Shown here one piece after another: positions 1-63,315 of a DNA stretch of 64,000 bases. The position numbers were made by a program, and so were the translations under genes. The stretch comes from Minisyncoccota bacterium. GTDB taxonomy: Bacteria; Patescibacteriota; Minisyncoccia; Moranbacterales; GCA-2747515. The notes beneath the pieces were generated by a model. The model saw only the letters and a program-made list of their open reading frames with translations, did not search any database and was not told the DNA's origin. The stretch's first letter is position 1, and each line of letters begins with the position of its first letter. Where the stretch lies: assembly GCA_937936355.1 (NCBI GenBank), contig CALDDM010000002.1:17156-81155 (forward strand). The letters run 5' to 3'.

Positions 1-540
1 AATCATCTCGATACCAATCGAGAAGTCGTTGACTGCTGTGCGACCATCAGGTACTCGTGATCGACCTGCATGATAAGCTATATCCTTGTCTAAGACAAGT
101 CTGTGTATCTGACCATCGCGTGTGATGATATAGTGTGGCGCAACGCCGTAACCCTTGAATATTTCTATGATCTTACCGAGATCATGCACTTTGACAGTAA
201 AAGGATTGTAGACACTGTGAACTATAACCGTGTCAATAGAATCTGCAGATCTATTAGCCTGCGTAAATCCCCAGTCTGTAAGGCGATCCGTAATGACTAA
301 GCTCTGTTGATTTTTTGTAACCGGCTCTAATTGATCACCCCCCTCATCGCCCACCTCTACTGAGGGAGTCGTAGCAACCTCATCAACTTCTTCAATCTGT
401 AGCGATTGCTCTATGGGTACTACAATTTCCGCACTACCGCATCCACTTGTGAGCACAGCCGCTAAGATTATTTTTGTGTATAAAGCCTTCTTCATGAGCA
501 TATTATAGCACCTGTTTGTTTTTCTCATTACTGGTGATAA

Positions 541-568
541 CAAAAAACCTCCCAAAGGAGGTCTTTTG
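541..568 (-). terminator. Rho-independent terminator (GC hairpin acctcccaaaggaggt + T-run on minus strand) after hup
   Basis: Inverted repeat cctccc/gggagg followed by a U-run on the minus strand, immediately after the HU stop. Confidence 0.55.
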
Positions 569-606
569 CTCACCCGATTCATATCGCGAACGCGTCATGA
601 ATTCGA

Positions 607-933
607 TTACATCTTTACCGCGTCTTTCAAAGCCTTTCCAGCTTTGAATTTTGGTACTGTTGTTGCAGCAATCTGAATGCGCTCTCCTGTCTTTGGGTTT
701 ACACCCTGACGAGCTGCACGGTCAGACGTCTTGAACGAACCAAATCCTGTGAAGGTTACTTCGTTACCAGCCTGCAATTGCGATGTGATCTCATCAACCA
801 TCCCATCAACAACCGCCTCAACATCACGCTTTGACATATCAAGTTTTACCGCTAGTGCATCGACGAGCCCACCTTTTGAAATTTTTTCAGCCATATTTTT
901 TTCACCTTCCTTTCTAGTAATTATTTTTTTCAC
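607..933 (-). CDS. hup: DNA-binding protein HU (histone-like). The true start is probably the internal Met at ~894 (MAEKISKGG...)
   Basis: Translation carries HU/IHF family signatures (GFGSFKTSDRAARQGVNPKTGERIQIAATTVPKFKAGKALKDAV); ~95 aa from the internal Met. Confidence 0.85.
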   Translation of the reverse strand: MKKIITRKEGEKNMAEKISKGGLVDALAVKLDMSKRDVEAVVDGMVDEITSQLQAGNEVTFTGFGSFKTSDRAARQGVNPKTGERIQIAATTVPKFKAGKALKDAVKM

Positions 934-1152
934 TGTCTTTAACGCATGTATTGTACATGGTTAAGCGGTTTTGCAGCAAACACTACTTATCCACAGGCTC
1001 ATCATAGCACTTTTACTTGTCGTACGCACCTACTATTTGATCACTTTTTCTCACTTGATTACCACTGGGTGAAATTCTAGCCTCTTTCTCTTACCCCCAC
1101 TTTCACTGCATATCACCTTTTCGACATGGACTGCTTCACACTACCTTCAAAC

Positions 1153-1180
1153 AAAAAACACCATTTCTCTGGTGTTTTTT
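1153..1180 (-). terminator. Rho-independent terminator (aaaaaacacca...tggtgtttttt)
   Basis: Hairpin flanked by an A-run and a T-run, downstream of the 1270..2025 minus-strand gene. Confidence 0.5.
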
Positions 1181-1269
1181 GTAGTATGGTCGAGTACAGA
1201 TTTCTGTACTCAACCCCCACCCTTTTTGCAGCCGTAGTTGGCGCCTTGTCTATCTTTGCAATTGCTCTG

Positions 1270-2025
1270 CTAGAACGCTCCTCTTGCTATTTCACGTAAT
1301 GCTATTTCAACATAATGACTAAAGCTGTGTCTGTTTTGCTCAATAAACTGCTCCAGTTCATTATGTGACCTTTTGTCTACCAACTCTACTGCCCTCAATT
1401 CGTCTGAGCCATTAGCGTTTTTGTAGTTTTCTAGAAATTTACCTGAACTGTGATCTATCGGCAAGTGATAGATTACAGCTACCTTACCCTCACCGCCACC
1501 TTTTACGATGTATGTTGGGTTCAATTTCCCCGCTTTGTACATCGTCGTCAGCTGCAGGTTTAAACCCACCTCCTCATGAATTTCTTTAAGCGTTAGACTA
1601 CTCAGATTGAATATTCCATTTTCATCCAGAACATCCTCTTCTAGGCCGCCACCTATAGCTTGTATGCCACCTGGCCGCGCTGTGTGTTGTGCCATTCGCC
1701 CGAGAACGATGTCTCCATTAGATGTTTCAAGAAAAGCTGCAATATGCAGAACATTGACCGCATATCTTCCTACATGTTGGCATTTGTCTTGTGACCATAT
1801 ATAGTGAGCATAGTCAGTCTCGAGGAGATCACATGCCAACAAAGTACTGCTTATTTGCATATCATGAATATGATATACTGACTTGTTTTCGAATACCCTG
1901 CCAGCATCCTGCAGCTCCTGAAAGTATTGATCAATTTGTTCACGCACTCCCATTGGCAAGTTAACACTCTCCCCTCGGGATTGTACGTGAATTTTCTTTG
2001 GTGCCTTATGAATCGTTAGACCCAT
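1270..2025 (-). CDS. Hypothetical protein with a weak Nudix-like segment
   Basis: 251-aa ORF with protein-like composition; segment GGGLEEDV...LKEIHEEVGL only loosely matches the Nudix box. Confidence 0.4.
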   Translation of the reverse strand: MGLTIHKAPKKIHVQSRGESVNLPMGVREQIDQYFQELQDAGRVFENKSVYHIHDMQISSTLLACDLLETDYAHYIWSQDKCQHVGRYAVNVLHIAAFLETSNGDIVLGRMAQHTARPGGIQAIGGGLEEDVLDENGIFNLSSLTLKEIHEEVGLNLQLTTMYKAGKLNPTYIVKGGGEGKVAVIYHLPIDHSSGKFLENYKNANGSDELRAVELVDKRSHNELEQFIEQNRHSFSHYVEIALREIARGAF

Positions 2026-32197: not shown

Positions 32198-32626
32198 TTA
32201 GTAGAAAATATTCTTGAGGTGATTTATTTTTGGTTTTTCACTGCCTGCTTTGTATAGCACCGTGATCGCATCTATGCGCCATACTGCATCCCACAATCCC
32301 TTTTGTGTGATGTACTTTTGTGCAACACGATTAATTTTTTCAATCTTTTTTCTTGTGATTTGCTCTTCAGGTAGTATGACGTTCCCAAGACCTTTTTCTC
32401 TTTTACTAATTGCCCGCGATTTTACCTCAATAAATACTATTTCCTTGTCTTTTTTTGCAATGATGTCAATCTCACCAAGGCGCTTAGCTCCACTGTTGTA
32501 CCAGTTAAAATCAACCACTTCATACCCAGAATCTCGAAGGTACCCTGCTGCATCATTCTCACCTCGCCCGCCTATGCCTTTCTGATTTGAGGCTTTGGCA
32601 CTCACTTTTTTGAATGGAATCCACAT
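32198..32626 (-). CDS. yraN: YraN/UPF0102 family endonuclease
   Basis: GENDAAGYLRDSGYEVVDFNW...GEIDIIAKKDKEIVFIEVKSR matches the UPF0102 signature. Confidence 0.75.
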   Translation of the reverse strand: MWIPFKKVSAKASNQKGIGGRGENDAAGYLRDSGYEVVDFNWYNSGAKRLGEIDIIAKKDKEIVFIEVKSRAISKREKGLGNVILPEEQITRKKIEKINRVAQKYITQKGLWDAVWRIDAITVLYKAGSEKPKINHLKNIFY

Positions 32627-32666
32627 GAATCAACTATATCATACTCAGCGTGTGGTTTTTGAACAC

Positions 32667-32705
32667 AAAAAATCCCTCTTGAGACTTCTCTCAAAGGGAT
32701 TTTTT
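32667..32705. terminator. Strong bidirectional terminator-like hairpin upstream of the yraN start
   Basis: aaaaaatccctcttgagacttctctcaaagggatttttt. Confidence 0.5.
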
Positions 32706-33699
32706 GGACTTCATTTATGCATGAGCAGATCACTTACCAGTGAAACATTTCTTGCAGAAATGGGTCCACTGGGCACGTGAGCCCAAAGTATATATATGGC
32801 TCGTGCCGCAATGGTTGTCCGGTTGAACAGACACGTCACTCTCTAAGTCATTATTTCCGGGTGAAAAAACAATGGTTAGGGTATTGTAGCAATGTACAAT
32901 GTTGCGTGAATTTTCAACAGACTTTTCTCATGGTTTCATCATGATACTTCTTCTTTCCGAATCAAGGACTGTGTCCCTTTGCTCTCAAGGAGCTTTAATT
33001 AAGGTACTGGTTACAAATTCATGTAAAGCTTTTTTTATTTTTGTTTTGCTTTTTGTCGAAGATGATACTTCGGATGGAAGTCCATCCGACTAGGTAGTAG
33101 ATCAACTATGCGCGATGCATATTGGATTGGTTACCTAGCGGATGAACCGCCACGTGATTTTGTTTTTGTTTTTTATGCGTGGTTTTGAAACGTATATTTC
33201 TTTGAAATAAAAACCGCACGAATAAAGCGGGTCAATAAACCCCCAATATTTTGATTCAGAGAGAAGTGTTTCCAACCATAAATAGGGGGTAATTATGATT
33301 GGAAACACTTCCTCCGATTCTTTTTGTTAATGATCTTGCTCTTTGTATACTGTCTAAGGTTTTTGTTTGGTGTTGCCTCTGTCTCAACCTTATAGAACCA
33401 TTATAGCAAGAATTTTACACTTGGTCAATGTGACTTGTCTTTTTTTGTTTTAAACACTAGCGTTTTTGATTATTTTCTTTCTCTTGCACGCCTCTCTTAA
33501 CTTTTATACTTTTATTTTTCTTTTTATAAAGTAAATTCCTTTTCTATTTTCACCCACTCTTTTGTGTTTTTTCTTTTTTTATAAACAGGTTGTGCACAGA
33601 TTTTCTCATTTACACATCTTCTTTGCCCTTATAATTTGATTCTGATTTTCACACTTGCATGAGAATGTAAAAGCCTCACAAATTGCGAGGCTTTCTAGA

Positions 33700-49662: not shown

Positions 49663-50631
49663 TTATTGTAGTGCTTTTACATCTATGCCGAATGATTCAA
49701 ATTTCTCAGTTATTTTTTTAGTCACGTCGCTGATTAGCGTCAGTGCTGCACTTGCTCTCTGTATGTGTAACATGAAGTCTAGTGGGTCGTTGGTTACGTC
49801 TATTCCTTTGCTTGTTTGTGCAAGTGATCCAATGTATTCAAATGTCTGTAGAGCTTCTATGTGCTCCTCCATTAGCGTCTCCGGGACTGCAACGTCAATG
49901 AGCTGGTCACCAGCTTCCGCCGCTGCTTCTGCAAGGTTTATAAAGTAGGATGAGTTTGTTGCGTCGCGGGAAACAATCTCAGCATTTTGGTAGATCTCCT
50001 GCATGAATTCTGTCGATGACTTCCTGCTAAATTCTGATCCAAAGCTTTGCTCAATGATGTATGTGAGTGCCGTATAATAATCAACTGCATCTTGTTGTAG
50101 CTTTTGCTCACGTTCCTGCCCTGTAAGATCCTCATAGCTCTGTGATTTTATATGCAACCTCTCTTGATCTATATCGTCAAACTGTTGACTTGGATCTGAT
50201 TCCTCAATATATTTTTGCACCTGTAAATCTAGACTTTCTTGATCAATCTCTCCAGACTCCTCGGCTGCAAGAGTAAACTCTTTCATAATGTCGGCGTATC
50301 CAGCAGAAAGATTTTTTTCGATGCCACCCCTTCCTTCCGGTATGGATTTTTCTTTCTCCTGTATGACACGGTCTCCGGGTGCTGGCTTCAGTGGATCAAA
50401 TCCTGATTCAATTTCCACGCCATCCCTGTAGCCGTCACCATCTGTGTCGGGGTTGCGTGCGTCGGTGCCAATGACTTTTTCCTCAGAATTACTGAGACCA
50501 TCCCCGTCAAAATCTTCGAAGTATGTTGTTTCACTTTGCCTGTTGTCAGCGCCAGCGTACAGAGAAACCGCACAGGTAAGCAGCACAGCAAACACTGCAA
50601 AAGGTATAATATTATGGAGGTTAAATTTCAT
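49663..50631 (-). CDS. Secreted protein with Ca-binding-like DxDxDG repeats (start at MKFNLHN)
   Basis: Signal peptide; DFDGDGLSNSEE...NPDTDGDGYRDG repeats (thrombospondin-type-3/EF-like). Confidence 0.45.
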   Translation of the reverse strand: MKFNLHNIIPFAVFAVLLTCAVSLYAGADNRQSETTYFEDFDGDGLSNSEEKVIGTDARNPDTDGDGYRDGVEIESGFDPLKPAPGDRVIQEKEKSIPEGRGGIEKNLSAGYADIMKEFTLAAEESGEIDQESLDLQVQKYIEESDPSQQFDDIDQERLHIKSQSYEDLTGQEREQKLQQDAVDYYTALTYIIEQSFGSEFSRKSSTEFMQEIYQNAEIVSRDATNSSYFINLAEAAAEAGDQLIDVAVPETLMEEHIEALQTFEYIGSLAQTSKGIDVTNDPLDFMLHIQRASAALTLISDVTKKITEKFESFGIDVKALQ

Positions 50632-50918
50632 TTTGTTTAGTGTAATTTTTTTTATTATACCACGTTCTCTTTCTTGTCGTCGACTTTTTGTAGTGCTGCA
50701 CTCTTGCCTCATCCTCATTTTTTTCTTATTATTTTTGTGTTTCTTGCATTTTTTTATTTCTAGTCCTCACTTCGTCCAGTAGAGTTTTGCGCGTTCTGCA
50801 TTCCACATTGCTGTCGCTCTAGTATTTGTCGTTATTTTTCTTGTATTTGATTTTTTGTCAAATTTGTGTTATTACGTTTTCTAAGTAGGTCGTTTGCTTC
50901 CTTTTTTCTGATTTCCTT

Positions 50919-51406
50919 GTTCACGTTCCACGTGGAACTTTTATTTTTGTGCGCTCTTGCGCAGTTTTTCTTACTGCTTTTCCCAGCGCTCTGCACCTGT
51001 TCCACGTTGAGCTATTCTGTCTCTCTGTTCTACGTGGAACTTTTTCATATCTTTGACTTTTCATGTTCTACGTGGAACATGATTTTCTCTGTTTCATCTT
51101 TCTTGCGTGAATTTTGATATTTCAACTCATTATTTATATTGTTCCATGTAGAACTAATTTTTCTTATCTGATTCTTATATTTTTCTGTTTTGAGCGGATT
51201 TGACTATGCTTCCTTGTTTTATTCTTCCGCATCATTGTTCCATGTGGAACATTTGAAACTTACTAACATATTTTTGATCACTTTTTCTGCACCATTTTAT
51301 TTACTATCCTTCACATTCTGTTCATTTCTCATTCTATGTGAAGTTACTCCTTTGTTCTACGTGGAACACTTTCTCCGCCTTTCATCTACTATGTTCTACG
51401 TGGAAC
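50919..51406. repeat. Array of at least 8 copies of the 14-bp palindrome GTTC[C/T]A[C/T]GT[G/A]GAAC (parS-like) at irregular 28-117-bp spacing
   Basis: Copies at 50925, 50999, 51037, 51065, 51141, 51237, 51354 and 51393, each usually preceded by T (TGTTC...GAAC). Confidence 0.85.
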
Positions 51407-51472
51407 AGCCTGCATATTTTTTCAATAATGTTTTGATCCTAGTGACTCTTGAATTCCATAAAGCAAGAGGGT

Positions 51473-51527
51473 ACTTGACAAAGTTATTACAAAATTGCTA
51501 TATAACTACGTCTTGCACATGTGGTAT
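51473..51527 (+). promoter_or_regulatory. Candidate sigma70 promoter(s) for the tRNA-Arg/rbfA transcript (TTGACA-N18-TATATA; extended -10 TGgTATAAT)
   Basis: cttgacaaagttattacaaaattgctatataac and tgtggtataat upstream of tRNA-Arg. Confidence 0.45.
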
Positions 51528-51590
51528 AATTACGCTATATTAAGCAGTCTAACTCCTTTGTGAGGAATTTTGACAAAACTATCAAAAAAT

Positions 51591-51662
51591 GCTTCTGTAG
51601 TTCAATGGATAGAACGAGAACCTCCTAAGTTCTAGATGTAGGTTCGATTCCTGCCAGAGGCA
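51591..51662 (+). tRNA. tRNA-Arg (CCT)
   Basis: gcttctg...cagaggc acceptor, anticodon loop ctCCTaa, T-arm gtagg-ttcgatt-cctgc. Confidence 0.75.
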
Positions 51663-51681
51663 CACAATTTTATTTCATCTA

Positions 51682-52017
51682 ATGGTCCACATGCGAGATC
51701 GTATATACAAAATCAACAGCCTCATAAAGAAGGAGATCTCCTCTCTTATTGTCAGTGAAATTGACTTTAAGTCTGGAGTGCTTGTTACAGTGTCAGATGT
51801 TTCTACAAATCAAGATTTGAGTCATTCACATATTAAAGTTCAGATATTGCCTGTGACAGAGACGGACTATGCAATGGCGACGTTAAAACATGAACAACCT
51901 GTACTCCAGAAAATTCTTCATAGACGTCTGCATATGAAAATCGTACCAAAAATCTCATTTGACCCGGATCTGCGCGGGGAAGATGTCGACACCCTCACCG
52001 ACCTCCTCTCCCAATAA
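51682..52017 (+). CDS. rbfA: Ribosome-binding factor A
   Basis: RIYKINSLIKKEISSLI...VTVSDVSTNQDLSHSHIKVQI, an RbfA KH-like pattern. Confidence 0.8.
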   Translation: MVHMRDRIYKINSLIKKEISSLIVSEIDFKSGVLVTVSDVSTNQDLSHSHIKVQILPVTETDYAMATLKHEQPVLQKILHRRLHMKIVPKISFDPDLRGEDVDTLTDLLSQ

Positions 52018-52033
52018 AACCTATACTTCAGTT

Positions 52034-53017
52034 ATGCATGTATCCAATGTCTTTCACCGTCAGTTTACTCACCTTCAAGGCGTATTACATGTTTCACATA
52101 AGATTCTTCTGGTTGCTCATATGAGACCAGATCCTGATGCTGTTGGGAGCGTTGTTGCGCTCAAGCATTATATTGAGGACAACTATCATGCAGAGGTTAC
52201 GATCGGTTGTTCTCACCCACTCCTACCAAGCCTTGCACCACTCTTTCCGGACATTCGATTTTCGATTGTTGATAGTGATCAAATTGATCTCACTACGTAT
52301 GATCTTGCTATAGGTTGTGACAGTGTTAATCGTGGTTTTGATGTAGTTTTACCCCGACTGGATAGTCAATGCGTCACCGTTGTAATTGATCATCACCATG
52401 ATATACAGATATCAGCGGATATCAGAATTATAGATCCTTCCTTCGCCTCTACCACAGAGCTCTTGTATCACTTTTTTCTCTTTGACCACGGCACGATTTC
52501 TCCGCGCACAGCTACCGCACTCCTCACAGGCATCATTGGGGATACTGGTATTTTTCAGTACGCTAACACATCGCCGCGCACACTAGAAGTTGCTGCAGCC
52601 CTGTCTCGCCTTGGCGCTTCGATTCCAGACATTGTCTCTGCTTCTTTTACAAATCAGAAGGTAGAGACGCTTAATCTGTGGGGAAGCGCACTTGAGAACG
52701 CGTCCTTTGACACAAAAACAGGTATCGTGACAACAGCGCTAACAAGCGAGGATTTGGCAGGTCGCACACCCACTTCAGAAGAGGTTAAACACATCGCAAC
52801 AATCCTCACGAACTCACCAAATGTCAAAGCTGTCCTTTTTCTTTTTCAAGCAGGACCGTCGACGATTAAAGCAAGTCTTCGTGCACGACCTGATGCTGGC
52901 ATTGATGTTTCTGCAATTGCTCGGAAGATTGGTGGGGGAGGGCACCCGCTTGCATCCGGTTTTGAAGTTGCTGGTCGACTGAATCTTCTCAGGCAGGGTG
53001 TTTGGGAAGTTACATAA
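52034..53017 (+). CDS. nrnA: DHH-family phosphoesterase (NrnA-like oligoribonuclease/pAp phosphatase); start taken after the rbfA stop
   Basis: ILLVAHMRPDPDAVGS..., DHH motif VVIDHHHD, GGGH C-terminal (DHHA1). Confidence 0.7.
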   Translation: MHVSNVFHRQFTHLQGVLHVSHKILLVAHMRPDPDAVGSVVALKHYIEDNYHAEVTIGCSHPLLPSLAPLFPDIRFSIVDSDQIDLTTYDLAIGCDSVNRGFDVVLPRLDSQCVTVVIDHHHDIQISADIRIIDPSFASTTELLYHFFLFDHGTISPRTATALLTGIIGDTGIFQYANTSPRTLEVAAALSRLGASIPDIVSASFTNQKVETLNLWGSALENASFDTKTGIVTTALTSEDLAGRTPTSEEVKHIATILTNSPNVKAVLFLFQAGPSTIKASLRARPDAGIDVSAIARKIGGGGHPLASGFEVAGRLNLLRQGVWEVT

Positions 53018-54766: not shown

Positions 54767-54996
54767 GACTTTAAGTTTTGTGGTTTTGTCTGCGTGCCAA
54801 AATTGCACACTCGTATCGTGATTACCATCTTCTTTGACACACAAAAAAATCGGCCACCCTTGGTCGATCTAAAACATCTCTATCAGCGCCATCACTATAA
54901 GGTACCTATAGCTATTACATAGCGCATGCGGATTTGTGCGTATTTCTACCTACAACTATTATAGCAAAAAAATTAGCTCTAGTCAATACACCTTTT

Positions 54997-55803
54997 ATGT
55001 CTCTCCAATCTCTTTTCTCTCGTTTTCGTCAACTCCATTTTATACTTCGCATCGTTATAGGACTTCTGTTTTTTGGTGTCTTTTACTTCCTCTGGCGTGA
55101 ACGCTTTGTCGTGACGCGACAGTTTCTTGCTCCAGAAGAGATGCTTTTTTCCAACACGCAACCCTGGGGCATCCTCCTTCGCCTCAAAGAATCTCAGAAG
55201 GGCTACACTAATCGCCAGTTCTCTGCCATCACCCTTTCTGCGCCACACACCAACACTGATCCGCGGACCCAGGATGAAATTGCAGATCTTCATGAACTAG
55301 TACGTTTACGCACACATGACGTTATTGCACGCATAGATCGTGAACGTTTCGATGTACGAAAGCTTACCATGGCGGACAAAACCTTGAGATCGCTACTTCG
55401 AGACGGAGCGCACCCACTGTCTGATGAATTGATTGATGCGGTGCTTTACGATTTCGATGCATATGTTTTGCATTTTAAGCGTATACATGACCGCGTTCGA
55501 CCTACAATCCTTGATCCATCTCTTCCGCATGCTTTTCCTGTGCCCAAGCATCCATCATATCCTAGCGGTCACAGCTCACAAGCTCACCTTATCGCTGAAA
55601 TCCTGAGCATCTTTCAACCTAAGCAGCGTGAGGCTTTTTTTGCAGATGCATGGCGCGTCGCTACTGACCGCGAGATTGCAGGCTTTCATTATCGCAGTGA
55701 TACTGTTGCGGGTCGGATTCTTGCACAGCAGTATTTCGCACTGCTTATGGAGTCAGATGATTTTCGTAGAGACCTCGCCGCTGCAAAGTCTGAGTGGGAG
55801 TAG
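54997..55803 (+). CDS. PAP2-superfamily phosphatase (membrane-anchored)
   Basis: Motifs RVRPT...PSGHSSQ...HYRSDTVAG (KxxxxxxRP / PSGH / SRxxxxxHxxxD). Confidence 0.65.
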   Translation: MSLQSLFSRFRQLHFILRIVIGLLFFGVFYFLWRERFVVTRQFLAPEEMLFSNTQPWGILLRLKESQKGYTNRQFSAITLSAPHTNTDPRTQDEIADLHELVRLRTHDVIARIDRERFDVRKLTMADKTLRSLLRDGAHPLSDELIDAVLYDFDAYVLHFKRIHDRVRPTILDPSLPHAFPVPKHPSYPSGHSSQAHLIAEILSIFQPKQREAFFADAWRVATDREIAGFHYRSDTVAGRILAQQYFALLMESDDFRRDLAAAKSEWE

Positions 55804-55995
55804 CTCGTGGCAGAACAAATAACATTGTCAGAGCGCGGAGTTACACACAGAGATTTCCTCATGCATAGTGTGCGCTGTGATATAATGAAGTGTGTCAAAA
55901 GTGTGCATTTTGTGCACGACGATTTCTGTATGATAGTTGTTACGGGGAAGTCATATAGGAACTGGTTGCAGTTTTTCAAAACCAAAAAACTCCCA

Positions 55996-58062
55996 ATGCT
56001 TACGAGATTATTCTCTTTACGCTCACCACGTCGACCTGCAATTATCTTTGCCTTATTTATAGTGTCACTTTTTGTGATGCCTTTTTATGGTGCCCCCGAT
56101 ATGACAATCCACACTTTAAATGCCTCAGCTAATAATACTGACCTAGATCTAGATCCCGGAACTATTAGTGATATAGTCGAGTGTAGACTGCGTGATGATG
56201 GTCCAATTATTGCCTGTCTTATAAACAAACTACTTTTCTTACCTGCTCAGCTTTTCTCTGTTGGCGTTTCTTTCGCGGTTAGCTTGCTGGATATATTCAC
56301 TGATCCAGTTCTCTACAATGCGCAATTTAAAAGTGAAGCCCTCTATGCTGGCTGGGGCGTAGTGCGCGATCTTTTTAATATTATCTTCATCTTTGCACTT
56401 CTTTTCAGCGCCTTTGCAACGATCTTCCAGATTCAGAAGTATCATTTGCGCAACATCCTCAAAAACGTTATCATCATGGCACTGCTGATCAATTTCTCGT
56501 GGCCGATTGCCCGCGTGATCATCGATTTCTCAAATATTCTCATGTTCTTCTTTTTGGGAGACGGTAATGGACTTCAGCTTGCAGCCCGAGTAAGTGAAGG
56601 AAAGGGCTTGCACAACATACTTCTTGCTGGGGCTGATATAAGACAATTCGGCTCCATGGGTAATGTGGTTTTGATAGATATATTTATGTTTATCTACATG
56701 ATCACGATGCTTACTGTTGCTTTTCAATTTATCATTAGATTGGTTGCTCTCCTCATGCTTATGGTCTTTGCGCCAATTGGCTTCGCTGGCGCTGCAATCC
56801 CCCGCATGGAAGGCCTATCTTCTAGTTGGTGGAGCGCTTTTCTTAAGTATTGCTTTGCTGGCCCAGTAATGATGTTCATGGTCGTACTTGCCAGCTTTAT
56901 AATGGTTGAAACAAATAAAGCAAATGAGGGTACGATCTTTGTAGCAACTAAAACTGGTGCCTTTGAAAATTTTCTAGGTAACGCAGTCGCCTTCACAGTA
57001 CCTATGGCGATTTTGTGGGGTGCAATCATCGCCTCCGGAAAGCTAGGCGATGCGGGCTCAAATTTTGTCACGAGCAAAGCAAAAAGCGCGCTCAGACGTG
57101 GTGGGGACTTTGTGACGCGCCCAGTGGTGGGTGTTGGGAAGGGTGCTGTGGGTAGCGCTACAGGTGTAGCTAAGAGAGCTGGACGCGCGTTTCCGGGCGT
57201 AGCAGCTGGGACTGGCATCATCAAAGGTGTTGGTAATAGCCTTGCCAAGAGCTCTGCAACGTCTAAGGCAAAGTTTGAAGCTCGCCAAGCAGCTGTTGCT
57301 GCAAACACACAACAACAAATGCCTGGTTTTGTGGGTGGAGATAGCAATGCAGTGGCAAAGTATGAGAAAACCGCCGCAATCAAGCGATCTTCGGAGTTCA
57401 AGGAGGCCGGCATAGGAGCCAAAGTTGCAGCTGACCAGTTCAAAAATGCTCAAGGCGTAGAAAAGCAAGCTCTTATGAGCTACATGACAAGCAAGGATGC
57501 TGTGAAAAGTGGGGAAGACCTACAACATGTTTTGACAGCTTTAGAGGTTGATCGAGTTAAAAGCCTGGAGGGTGTTACTGATCAAGCTTTTATAGATAAG
57601 ATAAATTCGGATTCACAAAAGAGTGCTCTCAAGTCTTTGGAGTCGATCGATGACTTTGCAGCAAGTCAGTTTAAAGAAGGCGATTATAAAAAGATAGCAT
57701 CTGCGTATAGCGGGTCTGATGAGACCGGCAAAGAGCTTTTGTCTGCGGTCAATAATAAGCTCCTTAGCAAGAATCGACTTGATCTTCAGCTCAGTCACGT
57801 AATTACTGATAAGCGTCAAGGTCCAGCGGCTGCAGCTGAAGTCGTGGAAAACCTCACGTCAACTCAACTGGCATCAAACGTGAAAGTGGCGCAGGTTCTC
57901 GAAGATAGTAAAGATGATCATTACCAAGAGACACTTGCTGTTGTCAGCGCAATCAACAATCAAGTCTTGTCTACACCAAAGTCTCGTGAGCAATTTGGCT
58001 TAAGGGCAGGAGCAAAGCAAAAAGATAAGCTCTCAAGCGTAGGCGTAAAAACTACTGTTTAG
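55996..58062 (+). CDS. VirB6/TrbL-like polytopic membrane protein of a type IV secretion-like system (the ORF is open from 55807; the signal-peptide start at 55996 is preferred)
   Basis: N-terminal signal, ~6-8 TM helices in the central region, long hydrophilic A/K/S-rich C-terminal tail, as in VirB6/ConG-type proteins; adjacent to VirB4. Confidence 0.45.
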   Translation: MLTRLFSLRSPRRPAIIFALFIVSLFVMPFYGAPDMTIHTLNASANNTDLDLDPGTISDIVECRLRDDGPIIACLINKLLFLPAQLFSVGVSFAVSLLDIFTDPVLYNAQFKSEALYAGWGVVRDLFNIIFIFALLFSAFATIFQIQKYHLRNILKNVIIMALLINFSWPIARVIIDFSNILMFFFLGDGNGLQLAARVSEGKGLHNILLAGADIRQFGSMGNVVLIDIFMFIYMITMLTVAFQFIIRLVALLMLMVFAPIGFAGAAIPRMEGLSSSWWSAFLKYCFAGPVMMFMVVLASFIMVETNKANEGTIFVATKTGAFENFLGNAVAFTVPMAILWGAIIASGKLGDAGSNFVTSKAKSALRRGGDFVTRPVVGVGKGAVGSATGVAKRAGRAFPGVAAGTGIIKGVGNSLAKSSATSKAKFEARQAAVAANTQQQMPGFVGGDSNAVAKYEKTAAIKRSSEFKEAGIGAKVAADQFKNAQGVEKQALMSYMTSKDAVKSGEDLQHVLTALEVDRVKSLEGVTDQAFIDKINSDSQKSALKSLESIDDFAASQFKEGDYKKIASAYSGSDETGKELLSAVNNKLLSKNRLDLQLSHVITDKRQGPAAAAEVVENLTSTQLASNVKVAQVLEDSKDDHYQETLAVVSAINNQVLSTPKSREQFGLRAGAKQKDKLSSVGVKTTV

Positions 58063-58079
58063 AATCAGAAATTGAAACT

Positions 58080-59483
58080 ATGGATATCAACTCACAATCA
58101 ATCTATCCACTTCTCGTACCATTGCGGGATGGGTCTGAGGACTTGCCTGCGGAGCTAGAGCTTAAGTGGGATAAGGTACGAGCGTTGCCTGAGCGCAATC
58201 GCTTGATTTTGCTCTCGGATGAAATCAAGGAGCTTATTCTGCGTTATTCCATTCAGCATAATCTGACAGAAAAACAAGCAGAGCATTTTTCGCGCTTGAT
58301 TCGCTCCTTTTTCTTTGGGGAGAACTCATCAGCTGAGACTGGCGTAGCGATTGGTGCCATTTTCCACCAAGACCAAGCTTTTGGTGTTGGCGTTTTGAAC
58401 GAAATCCAAGGCATATCTGCTATGCCAGCACCCGCCACTGCCGCACAAGCGAACACCCCCCCAACTCAAGTCATTCCATCTGAAATGCTTCCACTTGCAG
58501 AGGCGCGCGATAAGTATCCACAGTTGGGTCAACAGCTTGTCACCAAAGGTCGGATCATTGCGAAGCAGTTTGTCACACCCATGACGCCAACTGTTGCGCA
58601 CTGGATTAGTGCTTACGAGGCAATCGCAGGCGTGCAGAAGCATACTGCAATCGAGCGTGGTGAGTTTCTCTACCGATCCCAACCATGCAGAGGGCTTAGG
58701 GAGATCGATCGGACCAAGCTTGCACAGCTCCTCAAGGCACATGATGAGGGCACATCACTTAAGATCTCTACCGAAAAGGGTGGGATCATCTGGCAAAAGG
58801 ATTCAGCAGAAGCACAGAATCTCACACCTCAAAATCCGCAACCCGTAACGCCGACACCTGCGCAGAATCCTACTCCCGCTCCTACTTCAGTACAAACAAC
58901 CCAGCCAGTTATTGTCGCACCGAACCCACCAATCCAAGAGCTGCCTGCAACGCCCTCCCTTCAACAAATCCCTCAACAAACCGATTTACAACCTCACACT
59001 CAAGATTCCACACAAGCACCGCCACCGGCCCGACAGTCGCAGCAGATACCTCGCGCATCAAAGTCGCCACGCAGATCGTCTTCGCTGGAACCACAGCTTC
59101 ACTCTCTCCCAGATAGCCGCATAGAGAACGCGCAACCCGCCTCATCACCAGCACTTGGATCTGTGCGTAAGTCCCTTCCGAAACCTCAACCAATGCCGCA
59201 ACCCACTACACAGCCAACCAGTCGACCAGGCGTACAACACACAAATCAACAAGCGCCCGCAACACCGTCCCTTCAGCATTTTGCTCATCAACAGACTGGC
59301 ACCCAGCAACCATTACAGCGCGCGCAACCAAGCAAGCAGCAAAGCACGCAGCCACCTAAGAATCTTCCTACCACAGTCAACTTCAGTTCTGGTCAGACTC
59401 TTCCGACAGAAAAATCAGGTAACATGACGCCACATACTACCGACAAAAAACGCAACCCTTTTCACATTAATCCAATTGGATAA
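58080..59483 (+). CDS. Hypothetical protein with a P/Q/T-rich C-terminal low-complexity tail
   Basis: 467 aa; structured N-terminal ~250 aa then a PQ-rich repeat-like region. Confidence 0.4.
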   Translation: MDINSQSIYPLLVPLRDGSEDLPAELELKWDKVRALPERNRLILLSDEIKELILRYSIQHNLTEKQAEHFSRLIRSFFFGENSSAETGVAIGAIFHQDQAFGVGVLNEIQGISAMPAPATAAQANTPPTQVIPSEMLPLAEARDKYPQLGQQLVTKGRIIAKQFVTPMTPTVAHWISAYEAIAGVQKHTAIERGEFLYRSQPCRGLREIDRTKLAQLLKAHDEGTSLKISTEKGGIIWQKDSAEAQNLTPQNPQPVTPTPAQNPTPAPTSVQTTQPVIVAPNPPIQELPATPSLQQIPQQTDLQPHTQDSTQAPPPARQSQQIPRASKSPRRSSSLEPQLHSLPDSRIENAQPASSPALGSVRKSLPKPQPMPQPTTQPTSRPGVQHTNQQAPATPSLQHFAHQQTGTQQPLQRAQPSKQQSTQPPKNLPTTVNFSSGQTLPTEKSGNMTPHTTDKKRNPFHINPIG

Positions 59484-59540
59484 AGTGCTGAGGAAGCAAT
59501 GTATTAGCACTCTTATTACATATTATTCTATTGTTAGCTT

Positions 59541-60044
59541 ATGGAGGAGGTACCACAATTCATCAATACGCAGGACAAAATAGCGGGTCCATTTACGTGG
59601 AAGCAACTTGCATGGCTTGGGGGTGCTGGGATGATCCTTGCGCTTCTATGGCAGCTTCTTATTCGGCCAGTCTTCTTTGTCGTAGCTGTACCAATTGTTA
59701 TTATTGCCGGACTGCTGACATTCTTTCGTCCATATCAAATGTCATTTATTTCTTATCTTGGTCACTTGTTGGCCTACCTCTTCAAGCCACGTACATACCT
59801 CTGGCAACGGGAAGTCATCACACATGACGATGATGTTCAAGAGAATCAACCACAAGAAGTCCAACACTCTCAAAAGAGTGTCTCTCTTGAGGATGTGCAT
59901 GCCCTAACTGAGGCACTTGATAGTCATGGGTCTGTTCGCAACGAACGTTTGCAGGCAATTATTGCACAGAATCTTTCTCAGTCTGCGCATAAAAACAGCT
60001 TAGGTCTTGGTCGTACAAAGAAACCTGAGAACAAAGAGGCGTAG
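59541..60044 (+). CDS. Small 2-TM membrane protein, possible VirB3/ConD-like T4SS component
   Basis: Two adjacent TM helices (LAWLGGAGMILALLWQLLI; VFFVVAVPIVIIAGLLTFF) directly upstream of VirB4-like genes. Confidence 0.35.
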   Translation: MEEVPQFINTQDKIAGPFTWKQLAWLGGAGMILALLWQLLIRPVFFVVAVPIVIIAGLLTFFRPYQMSFISYLGHLLAYLFKPRTYLWQREVITHDDDVQENQPQEVQHSQKSVSLEDVHALTEALDSHGSVRNERLQAIIAQNLSQSAHKNSLGLGRTKKPENKEA

Positions 60045-60163
60045 ACTAACTGTCATTGTACGCTTCTTTTTATACACATGTCCTTTGTGTGCAAAATTTA
60101 GTACAATGTATGTAGTAGATTGAGAATGTTATATACGATTACAAATATTACTAGTGAAACATT

Positions 60164-60844
60164 ATGGAAAGTCTTGGTAGAGCGCAATCCTCCGCAAACA
60201 CACTAAACTATGTGGATATACAATCTGTAGAAGATGGTGTTGTTATACTCAAAAATGGAACCTTGCGCGCTGTCATCCTTGTCTCCTCTATCAACTTTGA
60301 TCTCAAATCTTCCGTTGAACAGGAAGCGATCATTGGAAGTTATCAGAACTTTCTCAACTCGCTTGATTTTCCTGTGCAGATTGTTGTGAGCTCTCGTAAG
60401 CTCAACATGTCATCTTATCTCTCGTTGCTGAGCTCCGCTGAAAAAGCCCAGCGCAATGAGCTCTTACGTATCCAAACGACAGAGTATCGCTCCTTTGTGA
60501 AGAATCTTGCTGACGTTACAAATATTATGAGTAAGTTTTTTTATGTCGTGGTGCCGTTTGCCCCTGTAGAGAATGCGAATGTTGGTGTCTTAAGTAAAAT
60601 TTCTAGCCTGGTTAACCCACAGGGTGCCCTCAAAGCACGTGGTGAACTCCTCGAGACGTACAAAAGCCAACTCTGGCAACGTGTTGACCATGTTGCAGCC
60701 GCGCTTGAGGGGACTGGACTGAATTTTACAGCTCTCACAACTGACGAGTTAATCGAGCTCTACTACAATGCATATAATCCATCTGTGTACTCACAATCCG
60801 GTGTAAAGGATGTCTCTCAATCAGAACTTGCAACACGCAGTTAA
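60164..60844 (+). CDS. T4SS-associated protein resembling the N-terminal domain of Gram-positive VirB4 (ConE/TcpF-type); possibly a split VirB4 N-domain
   Basis: YVDIQSVEDGVVILKNGTLRAVILVSSINFDLKSSVEQEAIIGSYQNFLNSLDFPVQI matches the start of ConE-like ATPases; combined length with the next ORF (226+604) equals a full-size VirB4. Confidence 0.4.
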   Translation: MESLGRAQSSANTLNYVDIQSVEDGVVILKNGTLRAVILVSSINFDLKSSVEQEAIIGSYQNFLNSLDFPVQIVVSSRKLNMSSYLSLLSSAEKAQRNELLRIQTTEYRSFVKNLADVTNIMSKFFYVVVPFAPVENANVGVLSKISSLVNPQGALKARGELLETYKSQLWQRVDHVAAALEGTGLNFTALTTDELIELYYNAYNPSVYSQSGVKDVSQSELATRS

Positions 60845-60893
60845 TCTCGTTCACTACAGCTTGTTGTAGAAAATATTACCAACCACATAAAAC

Positions 60894-62708
60894 ATGCTTG
60901 TGCTATTTGGAAAAAAGAAAAAAAAAGAAAGTAGTCTCGAGTCGGATATGATGCAAGATGAGAAGGTTTATCAGCAGGGCATTGCCACAGTTCGTGGCTT
61001 AATCGCTCCGAGCGCATTTCAGATTCAAGCCTCCCAGATCCAAGTGGGTGACACAGTTGCGACAACTCTCTTTGTCATTGCGTACCCACGCTACCTGAGC
61101 AATAATTGGTTTTCTCCGATTATTAACATTGACTTTCCAATGGATATAGCAATGTTTATCCATCCCGCTGATTCTGGTATCGTTCTCAAAGATCTCCGCA
61201 AACAAGCAACGCGACTAGAGTCTCAAATCTCTATGGAAGCACGAGCTGGTAAAGTACGCGACCCCAAGCTTGAGGCAGCAATTGCGAATGTTGAAAATCT
61301 TCGCAACAGTCTCCAGCAGGGGACTGAACGATTCTTTCGTTTTGGACTCTATATCACCTTGTATGCAGCTGACCAGAAAGAACTCCGCAAGCAAAAGAAT
61401 GAAATTATTACCATCCTAGAGGCACAGCTCATCTATGCAAAGTCTGCGACCCTTCGTATGGACAAAGCATTTATCTCTACCTTGCCGCTTGCAGATGATA
61501 CGCTCAATATTGGCACAAACCTTAATACTGGTCCTCTTTCTACGACATTTCCTTTTGTCAGTGCAAGCCTTTCCTCTAACGATGGGATCTTGTATGGTGT
61601 CAATCGACATAACAACAGCCTCATACTCTTTGACCGCTTCAACCTCGAGAATGCAAATATGACCGTTTTTGCAAAATCTGGAGCGGGGAAGAGTTACTTT
61701 GTCAAACTTGAGATTTTGCGTTCAATGATGTTTGGAACGAGTGTGATCGTTATTGACCCAGAGAATGAGTACAAACACCTTTGTCAGACAATTGGCGGCT
61801 CGTTTATCAATATATCGCTCGGCTCAAAGGTGCACATCAATCCATTTGAACTTCCCGATATACCAGAAGGGGAGCGACCAGAGGATGTCTTTCGCAATGC
61901 AATTGCAAACCTCATCGGACTCATGCATATCATGCTGGGATCACTTAATGCAGAAGACGATACAATCATCGAACGCGCTATACGTGAAGCCTACGCTGTG
62001 CGTGATATTTCAGAGACACGTGACTTTTCAAAAATTGCACATGAGGAATTCCCCACAATGACCGATCTCAAATCAATCCTTGAGAACATGGAGGGTGGAA
62101 ACCGCCTTGCACTACAACTAGAGAAGTACACCGAAGGTGTTTTTGCAAATTTTCTCGATCAGCCCACCAACATCATTGTTGATAATCAAATTATTGTCTT
62201 TAATATACGTGATCTCGAAGAAGAGCTCCGACCAATCGCGATGTACCTGATCCTTCAGTTTATATGGAATGAAATGCGGGTTAATATGAAAAAGCGCCTG
62301 GTCATTGTTGATGAGGCGTGGCTCATGATGCAAAATGAAGATGCTGCGTCGTTTATCTTTGGTATCGCTAAGCGTTGCCGCAAATACTACACAGGCCTCA
62401 CGACGATCACACAGGACATTTCCGATTTTCTCACGAGTCGCTATGGAAAACCAATCATCACTAATTCGTCCCTTCAACTCCTTCTTAAGCAGTCCCCAGC
62501 ATCAGTAGACCTTCTCAAAGACACTTTTTATCTGACAGACCATGAGAAGTTCCTCCTCCTTGAGAGTGGTGTAGGTGAGGGAATCTTTTTTGCTGGCCCA
62601 AAGCATGCTGCTATTAAAGTTATTGCATCCTACAGCGAGGACCAAATCATCACCTCTGACCCCAAGCAACTCCTTGCCATCAAAGAAGTTCGTGAGTCCC
62701 TTGAGTAA
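60894..62708 (+). CDS. VirB4/ConE-like type IV secretion ATPase
   Basis: YPRYLSNNWFSPII...; Walker A FAKSGAGKSYFVKLEI; Walker B LVIVDEAWLMM; 604 aa. Confidence 0.8.
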   Translation: MLVLFGKKKKKESSLESDMMQDEKVYQQGIATVRGLIAPSAFQIQASQIQVGDTVATTLFVIAYPRYLSNNWFSPIINIDFPMDIAMFIHPADSGIVLKDLRKQATRLESQISMEARAGKVRDPKLEAAIANVENLRNSLQQGTERFFRFGLYITLYAADQKELRKQKNEIITILEAQLIYAKSATLRMDKAFISTLPLADDTLNIGTNLNTGPLSTTFPFVSASLSSNDGILYGVNRHNNSLILFDRFNLENANMTVFAKSGAGKSYFVKLEILRSMMFGTSVIVIDPENEYKHLCQTIGGSFINISLGSKVHINPFELPDIPEGERPEDVFRNAIANLIGLMHIMLGSLNAEDDTIIERAIREAYAVRDISETRDFSKIAHEEFPTMTDLKSILENMEGGNRLALQLEKYTEGVFANFLDQPTNIIVDNQIIVFNIRDLEEELRPIAMYLILQFIWNEMRVNMKKRLVIVDEAWLMMQNEDAASFIFGIAKRCRKYYTGLTTITQDISDFLTSRYGKPIITNSSLQLLLKQSPASVDLLKDTFYLTDHEKFLLLESGVGEGIFFAGPKHAAIKVIASYSEDQIITSDPKQLLAIKEVRESLE

Positions 62709-62754
62709 TCCATGGAGACTTCTGCGTTTGGATCTAATACGCTAGCGTACTGAT

Positions 62755-63315
62755 ATGGCTACACCCACCGCAACAACACTTGGCAAACCACTCCGACGCA
62801 TCACATCCAGTACATCTCGCAATGCTGTACACCGCCTGCGCAAAGCAACACAAGAGCACGTCACTCGCAACCCCGTACTTGACCAAGAAATACTCGTGGC
62901 GAAACAGCACGCCAAAGATACTATACGGAATATAAAAAGCGAGTCTGATATGCCTTTTTGGATTTTGATTTTTAGCTCACTCTTTGTTACGTTTATTGGC
63001 TTTATAAGTCTTATACCTGTTGTAGGGTGGGGGTTTTATATGGTTATCAAGCTCTGTAATATGATCCTTGGAATCATGGCGATCAGCTACGCGAATCACA
63101 TGACGCATAGCAGGCTCAAGAGCCATGGTCGTTTGTTCACGCGTATTATCATTCTCTCGCTTACAATGCTCTTTGGCTTACTTTTTCCACCAGTAAATGC
63201 AATACTCTTGAATATGCCAACACTTTTGACCGAGGCTTGGATTCTTTGGAGTGCCCGCCGTCATCGCAAAGAGGCAATAGCAGAACTTGAGAAGACCCTT
63301 ACCCTCTCTGCATAG
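62755..63315 (+). CDS. Membrane hypothetical protein (T4SS-neighbourhood)
   Basis: 4 TM helices; 186 aa. Confidence 0.4.
   Translation: MATPTATTLGKPLRRITSSTSRNAVHRLRKATQEHVTRNPVLDQEILVAKQHAKDTIRNIKSESDMPFWILIFSSLFVTFIGFISLIPVVGWGFYMVIKLCNMILGIMAISYANHMTHSRLKSHGRLFTRIIILSLTMLFGLLFPPVNAILLNMPTLLTEAWILWSARRHRKEAIAELEKTLTLSA

Follow-up and report, generated by a model that had tools for sequence, protein, structure and literature searches.

The window, as the whole 64-kb stretch of DNA analysed here is called, carries between a secreted-protein gene and a tRNA-Arg(CCT) gene an array of eight 16-bp palindromes that, judged by sequence, is very likely a chromosomal centromere, that is, an eight-site parS cluster at which ParB dimers would load. 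A parS-like centromere or nucleation site for ParB was among the possibilities raised in the original prediction, and this one is supported by the identity of the motif with validated sites, its association with parA-parB operons elsewhere, the conservation of the array in relatives, and the presence of a canonical parS in one of these relatives (L096). The array appears to be an unusually dense but otherwise ordinary parS centromere that is conserved in related genomes, and it reveals no new mechanism. For an uncultivated, Moranbacteria-like lineage of the CPR (Candidate Phyla Radiation)/Patescibacteria, it is a tangible candidate for a centromere and one that is conserved; no discussion of parS or ParB in the CPR/Patescibacteria was found in the open-access literature.

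Seven distinct exact matches to GTTCNANGTNGAAC start at positions 50925, 51027, 51065, 51141, 51237, 51354, and 51393, and a degenerate eighth copy, TGTTCCACGTTGAGCT, starts at 50998. Counted strand by strand, there were 12 matches to GTTCNANGTNGAAC in the 64-kb window compared with 0.04 expected, and none of 100 shuffles reached 12. The seven exact sites and the degenerate one span 484 bp (50924-51407). The putative parS sites are listed here as 16-mers, with the aligned position in L143, a contig from a relative, where there is one:

50924..50939, site 1, CGTTCCACGTGGAACT; the 14-bp core is perfect and only outer positions 1 and 16 deviate
50998..51013, site 2, TGTTCCACGTTGAGCT; degenerate, with a perfect left half and two core mismatches in the right half
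51026..51041, site 3, TGTTCTACGTGGAACT; with T at both positions 6 and 16; aligns with L143 8972
51064..51079, site 4, TGTTCTACGTGGAACA; aligns with L143 9014
51140..51155, site 5, TGTTCCATGTAGAACT; the weakest full site, lacking a perfect half-site
51236..51251, site 6, TGTTCCATGTGGAACA; the central CpG is changed to TpG
51353..51368, site 7, TGTTCTACGTGGAACA
51392..51407, site 8, TGTTCTACGTGGAACA; aligns with L143 9342, with T at position 6 in both

The predicted number of eight parS-like palindromes was thus recovered as seven exact sites and one degenerate site, but the full 16-mer that had been given for them, TGTTC[C/T]A[C/T]GT[G/A]GAACA, fits only four of the eight; three of the others deviate at outer position 1 or 16, and one by two core mismatches. 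The most common form of the site was TGTTCTACGTGGAACA, with four copies, all in one orientation. None of the eight 16-mers is a perfect palindrome. Each differs from the palindrome by one to three bases. In the chromosomal parS palindrome, tGTTNCACGTGNAACa, G2, T3, T4, A7, and C8 are conserved; in the array, as read from the site list, G2, T4, C5, and A7 were present in each of the 16 half-sites, T3 in 15 of them, and C8 in 14. At least one perfect GTTCCAC half-site was retained in seven of the eight sites, and of the 11 GTTCCAC heptamers in the window all but three are inside the array. The imperfect sites may reflect weakened binding or ongoing decay. All copies in the window fall within the one 484-bp stretch, and no site with two or fewer mismatches to TGTTNCACGTGNAACA was found outside of it anywhere in the 64 kb. 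Sites occur at a density of approximately one per 50-60 bp, separated by irregular gaps of 74, 28, 38, 76, 96, 117, and 39 bp, and Tandem Repeats Finder detected no repeat unit in the array.

The same 16-bp palindrome is known from Pseudomonas species. In P. aeruginosa parS2 and parS3 are both TGTTCCACGTGGAACA, a perfect palindrome, parS5 is TGTTCTACATGGAACA, sharing a T at position 6 with the main form in the window, and G2 and C5 are invariant in all of the half-sites (PMC4368675); the array shares both the T6 natural variant and the invariant G2 and C5. A review tabulates TGTTCCACGTGGAACA for P. putida as well (PMC7022226), and the consensus of 22 sites in M. xanthus, for which ParB binding was demonstrated by EMSA, is TGTTCCACGTGGAACG (PMC3899335). 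TGTTCCACGTGGAACA is an experimentally validated parS of P. aeruginosa, P. putida, and M. xanthus, and the symmetric T to C change (GTTCCACGTGGAAC), which was first thought to be a departure from the canonical ParB site, is one of the ways in which parS is commonly spelled in nature, validated in Pseudomonas and Myxococcus. A second spelling, TGTTCCACGTGAAACA, is reportedly that of the parS bound by Spo0J in B. subtilis, in work said to be by Lin and Grossman in 1998; the half-site TGTTCCAC is shared between B. subtilis parS and the array, and the exact hybrid 16-mer occurs eight times in L096. A site for a Noc-family protein, which had also been suggested, does not fit the sequence. The Noc-binding site, TATTTCCCGGGAAATA, is likewise a 16-bp palindrome and is bound by a paralog of ParB, but no match to it with three or fewer mismatches was found in the array. 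Positions 2 and 7, which are said to separate parS from the Noc site (Jalal et al., in 2020, reportedly), are G and A in the array, as in parS, and not A and C, as in the Noc site.

A scan of metagenomic sequences for two copies of the motif 10-40 nt apart identified at least 120 contigs with GC contents from 26 to 74%. Among the matches listed, 183 of the 278 instances were the exact 16-mer TGTTCCACGTGGAACA. In a motif screen, an open reading frame with a ParA Walker-A motif was found in 55 of the 119 listed contigs, nearly always directly beside the pair of sites, and one with the ParB GERRxRA motif in 28 of the 119, again nearly always adjoining the pair; among the contigs listed, these par genes were typically located just downstream of the motif pair. 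Four operons were checked against Pfam (L055, L092, L023, and L043), and all four encoded both ParA (AAA_31/CbiA) and ParB (ParB_N, HTH_ParB, and ParB_C). In other genomes, then, the motif is linked with parA-parB operons, and because of this adjacency it is, for many phyla, the usual site at which ParB binds the chromosome.

The tandem pairs of TGTTCCACGTGGAACA upstream of parA-parB in these contigs (within L010-L129, for example L055 3977-4327, L092 7509-7654, and L023 3620-3677) sometimes expand to four to seven copies, and the copies are spaced 25-55 bp apart in contigs across the whole 26-74% range of GC content. Paired parS upstream of parA-parB would seem to be a very common arrangement, serving either autoregulation or the loading of ParB.

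The survey also indicated how unusual the density of the array is. In the densest 1 kb of each of the 120 listed contigs there was one site in 2 contigs, two sites in 88, three in 14, four in 8, five in 3, six in 1, seven in 3, and 14 in 1, and the sole contig with 14 sites was L096, the relative of the window. In L055, seven sites are packed into the 340 bp that precede parA-parB, and M. xanthus has 22 parS sites on a 3.12-kb fragment (PMC3899335), so the array of the window is at the dense end of the known range, not beyond it. The prediction had stated that chromosomal parS is normally present in one to a few dispersed copies, but dense chromosomal clusters are documented, as in M. xanthus. 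Like the array described here, that cluster has the same motif in a dense chromosomal group, and its 22 sites bind ParB as a large complex (PMC3899335), although its density is approximately one site per 140 bp compared with one per 50-60 bp in the window. According to its description, the M. xanthus cluster belongs to the origin-proximal parABS locus, whereas the array of the window is upstream of tRNA-Arg/rbfA and away from any par genes seen. P. aeruginosa has four strong sites in a cluster described as close to oriC (PMC4368675), compared with eight imperfect sites in 0.48 kb here and no parAB or origin marker within 12-50 kb. The array described here is in a CPR genome. In B. subtilis, approximately ten parS sites are scattered around the origin-proximal portion of the chromosome, several of them inside genes, and they are not known to form a sub-kilobase array.

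The array is located in a long divergent intergenic region, as had been predicted, with a TSP3 gene to its left and tRNA-Arg(CCT) and rbfA to its right:

49663..50631, minus strand, gene whose product has a signal peptide and TSP3 repeats (Pfam, bacterial TSP3), the divergent left neighbor
50632..51590, divergent intergenic region, 959 bp, 34% GC, containing the array as well as the tRNA/rbfA promoter block
51475..51534, plus strand, promoter-like block, conserved with L143; a putative promoter
51591..51663, plus strand, tRNA-Arg(CCT), the first gene 3' of the array in all five array-bearing genomes
51682..52017, plus strand, rbfA (ribosome-binding factor A)
52034..53017, plus strand, nrnA-like DHH/DHHA1 phosphoesterase gene, with its start set to fit the 327-aa database protein P0001
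52998..53603, plus strand, uracil-DNA glycosylase family gene (udg), the final gene of the conserved block

The intergenic region is strongly T-rich on the plus strand (AT skew -0.40). The promoter-like block contains TTGACA at 51475-51480 and an extended -10 element, TGTGGTATAAT, at 51520-51530, and the last parS site ends 68 bp 5' of the TTGACA. A search of the array region against Rfam found no RNA family besides the tRNA, and a non-coding RNA or riboswitch was rejected. The window is housekeeping chromosome, with gyrA, pnp, ftsH, tilS, gmk, an rpsA-like S1 gene, nusA, tig, clpP, rny, and nine tRNAs. A further short element, TTTGACA(A/T)AACTATCA, is found directly 5' of tRNA-Arg(CCT) in the window (51570-51590) and in L143 (9520-9542); it is conserved between the two and may serve as a promoter or as a signal for processing.

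Analysis of the proteins encoded in the window (approximately 50 open reading frames of at least 115 aa) with Pfam identified no ParA, ParB, or DnaA, and a motif search of the six-frame translation of the window found none either, which bears out the earlier statement that the window contains no parA or parB genes. Genes for ParB, ParA, and SMC were likewise absent from the 64-kb window and from the 21 kb around the L143 array, and no DnaA was encoded in those 21 kb either.

That the region might be a replication origin, or part of one, with the palindromes serving as paired inverted elements resembling DnaA boxes (TGTGGAACA compared with TGTGGATAA), is suggested by the length and AT-richness of the intergenic region, by gyrA only 10 kb from the array, and by gene orientation, which flips from mostly minus to mostly plus at approximately 43 kb. 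However, there were no DnaA boxes (TTATCCACA-like, with one or no mismatch) within 50.6-51.6 kb, and their number in the 64-kb window (18, with 16 expected) showed no enrichment. The dnaA and dnaN genes are absent from the window. GC skew and GC3 skew were negative across the window with no change of sign, and the cumulative curves had no minimum at 51 kb. The half-site itself fits the DnaA box at only six or seven of nine positions but fits parS at eight of eight. An origin or DnaA-box cluster was rejected on these grounds and is hardly credible. As to an origin-proximal position of the array, gyrA is again close, but dnaA, a DnaA-box cluster, and a skew switch were not found in the window.

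Relatives of the window were found with NrnA as an anchor, with the exception of L096, which the motif scan happened to pick up. The array was present in five genomes, the window and four others, at one locus, upstream of tRNA-Arg(CCT)-rbfA-nrnA-udg:

Window, the reference; 8 sites in 484 bp
L143/L144/L145, 310-kb contigs, NrnA 75% identical; 7 sites in approximately 550 bp
L140, NrnA 60% identical; 8 sites in approximately 450 bp
L130-L133, NrnA 59% identical; 9 sites, all nine of them perfect, in approximately 450 bp
L096, FtsH 62%, RbfA 48%, and TSP3 30% identical; 14 sites in approximately 870 bp

L143 was colinear with the window over 21 kb, a stretch that includes an MBL-fold gene, S1, gmk, tilS, ftsH, TSP3, rbfA, nrnA, udg, and the genes of a type IV secretion system (T4SS). 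The TSP3 gene was the divergent left neighbor in four of the five genomes (the window, L143, L140, and L096). The distance from the last site to tRNA-Arg(CCT) was 173-262 bp in all five. The nearest named homologs of NrnA, with only 41-50% identity, were from Candidatus Moranbacteria/Moraniibacteriota, which places the organism in the CPR/Patescibacteria, at some distance from any named relative. In the more distant relatives L134, L142, L136, and L001 (NrnA 50-56% identical) there were no sites at the locus, and other genes were located upstream of rbfA. When genome contigs were searched with NrnA, a single CPR relative was recovered (50% identical, Moraniibacteriota), in which the array was missing.

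In L130, two overlapping plus-strand open reading frames (119 and 297 aa, at 19-1261, with no Pfam match) are found upstream of the array instead of the TSP3 gene; by eye, the pair is similar to an insertion sequence or transposase.

Comparison of the arrays indicated that the sites have been maintained and the DNA between them has not. In the alignment of the intergenic regions of the window and L143, only three parS sites and the promoter-like block could be aligned, and the spacers were unalignable; the conserved promoter-like pieces were TTGACAAA, TGTG-TATAATTACG, and TTTGACA-AACTATCA. Between 52 and 61% of the 10-mers shared with each relative were inside sites, although sites make up 13% of the region. 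With arrays of 7, 8, 9, and 14 sites and spacers that cannot be aligned, the sites appear to be under purifying selection relative to their flanks, and by this sequence comparison selection would act on the sites only while the spacers drift. L143 shares the variants of the window, T at position 6 and T at position 16, and T6 half-sites, TGTTCTAC, are also found in L140 (60%) and in the CPR contig L097. Because they recur in L143, L140, and L097, the T6 half-sites look to be tolerated by the cognate protein of this lineage, presumably its ParB, rather than to be the result of random decay. The sites of L096 include one perfect canonical parS, TGTTTCACGTGAAACA, eight copies of TGTTCCACGTGAAACA, which we take to be the B. 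subtilis spelling of parS, and several GGAAC forms.

These comparisons bear on whether the palindromes are binding sites for ParB at all. They could be operators of an unrelated dimeric transcription factor recognizing a palindrome centered on CACGTG, with the likeness to parS a coincidence; no ParB gene was seen in the window, and the region is one from which promoters diverge. The match to validated parS, however, extends beyond the core to all 16 positions, L096 mixes the motif with canonical parS in a single array, and in 55 of the 119 listed unrelated contigs the motif goes together with parA-parB. Furthermore, no regulator is conserved beside the array, its left neighbor being either the secreted TSP3 protein or the insertion sequence-like open reading frames of L130. 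An unrelated factor is thus highly improbable. So, to a slightly greater degree, is the proposal that the palindromes are selfish or structural repeats of the REP or MITE type, or weak intrinsic terminators. Several sites are followed by T-runs on the plus strand (50920-51082), and a terminator scan flagged four sites, with seven terminator-like matches compared with 0.7 expected. On the other hand, the stems are only 5-7 bp, there are no T-runs around the sites in L096 and L130, and, because the TSP3 gene diverges, no plus-strand transcription enters the array from the left. As for repeats, the rest of the 64 kb contains no further copy, and there was no Rfam match. Neither repeats nor terminators would explain the identity to parS across phyla.

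If the array is a centromere, as is preferred here, it could belong to the chromosome or to a mobile element, and both a plasmid or integrative conjugative element (ICE) partition site and a sopC-type cluster had been proposed. A type IV secretion cluster, PAP2-TrbL-PrgI-TraC-VirB4, is located 3.5 kb downstream of the array (54934-63315). L130, however, has the array without T4SS genes downstream, so the array is separable from the secretion cluster, and a T4SS-linked ICE or plasmid centromere was rejected for this reason. A mobile-element centromere was also rejected in view of the viral contigs that have the motif, which contain only pairs or triplets, with three or fewer sites per kb. The sopC locus of the F plasmid consists of about a dozen 16-bp inverted-repeat sites for SopB within a few hundred base pairs, arranged as a regular 43-bp tandem repeat of a different sequence beside sopAB. 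Dense packing of sites for a ParB-family protein is common to sopC and the array, but unlike sopC the array is irregular, with a spacing of 28-117 bp and no unit detected by Tandem Repeats Finder, has sites of the chromosomal type, and has no par genes nearby; a tandem centromere of the sopC type was rejected.

The AT skew turns positive over 57-62 kb, in the region of the T4SS cluster.

The viral contigs were 41 sequences from IMG/VR (L146-L186) with a close pair of chromosomal-type parS sites, and in the motif screen only one of the 41 had an adjacent ParA/ParB. These contigs may represent phages or phage-plasmids relying on the ParB of the host, or host DNA mis-binned as viral.

A chromosomal centromere of this kind would be expected to function in the manner established for other ParB systems. 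A ParB dimer would bind each 16-bp palindrome through its helix-turn-helix domain, and upon binding CTP it would close into a clamp, leave the site, and slide onto the flanking DNA. Because clamps would leave the site and slide, eight loading sites approximately 60 bp apart would feed one compact, robust partition complex, which would then be moved by ParA, would recruit SMC, or both. The complex would also cover the tRNA-Arg/rbfA and TSP3 promoters, and therefore a mild secondary effect on expression is possible; by analogy with parS3 and parS4 of P. aeruginosa, a cloud of ParB could damp the flanking promoters.

An alternative in which such regulation is the main role of the array was also considered, namely that ParB, or a CTP-dependent clamp of the KorB/BisD type, silences or tunes the TSP3 gene and the tRNA-Arg/rbfA/nrnA/udg operon, with segregation being secondary or absent. 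The array is always 173-262 bp upstream of tRNA-Arg, with a conserved promoter block in between, parAB is not adjacent to it, and P. aeruginosa ParB represses the genes beside the intergenic sites parS3 and parS4 (PMC7022226). Direct repression in the manner of an operator is unlikely because the array stops 68 bp short of the -35 element and leaves the extended -10 element free. Moreover, 8-14 operators far exceed what would be needed to repress one promoter, and the motif is a segregation centromere wherever it has been tested. A regulatory effect is compatible with a centromere, as a side effect of it, and so the two are not exclusive; as the principal function of the array, regulation is improbable.

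A more specific possibility, which is unlikely but less so than a regulatory array, is that in this clade the entire centromere may have been compacted into one 'super-parS' of less than a kilobase with 7-14 sites, which would have no linkage to parAB, would be fixed upstream of tRNA-Arg/rbfA/nrnA, and would be served by a ParB of relaxed specificity that accepts TGTTCTAC half-sites. If this were true, the 'super-parS' could be an adaptation of ultra-small cells that have very few ParB molecules, and it could couple the loading of ParB clamps to the expression of ribosome-maturation genes. The natural series of arrays, with 7, 8, 9, and 14 sites and with both perfect and T6 variants, is a test set for the influence of site number and quality on the loading of ParB-CTP clamps, and the array could be used as a landmark for closing and orienting CPR genomes.

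Several of the other contigs had parS sites in distinctive settings. L128 (Ga0224524_1001045) contained seven perfect parS sites at 385-1291, within an open reading frame of 532 aa (214-1812, minus strand) with a Pfam match to Wzy_C (O-antigen ligase); either the array is inside a coding sequence or the open reading frame is mis-called. In the low-GC contigs L020, L037, L038, L051, and L028, which from their gene content we guess to be Bacteroidota-like, a pair of parS sites flanks mnmG (gidA). The surroundings of mnmG are a classic origin-proximal neighborhood.

Within the window, a gene-free, low-GC stretch of 1.07 kb (32627-33699) lies between yraN and an open reading frame of 611 aa that has no Pfam match; no Rfam family, tRNA, or parS-like site was found in this stretch. 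The yraN gene itself (32198-32626) contains no parS sites. In two CPR-like contigs from the 0.1-um fraction of Hainich groundwater (L097 4747-4983 and L017 2281-2793), there were three to five parS sites in yraN (UPF0102) and at its start codon, and L097 is syntenic with the pnp-NYN-yraN region of the window, with 29-51% identity. Because yraN has sites in L097 and L017 and has none in the window, the position of the centromere would appear to differ between CPR lineages.
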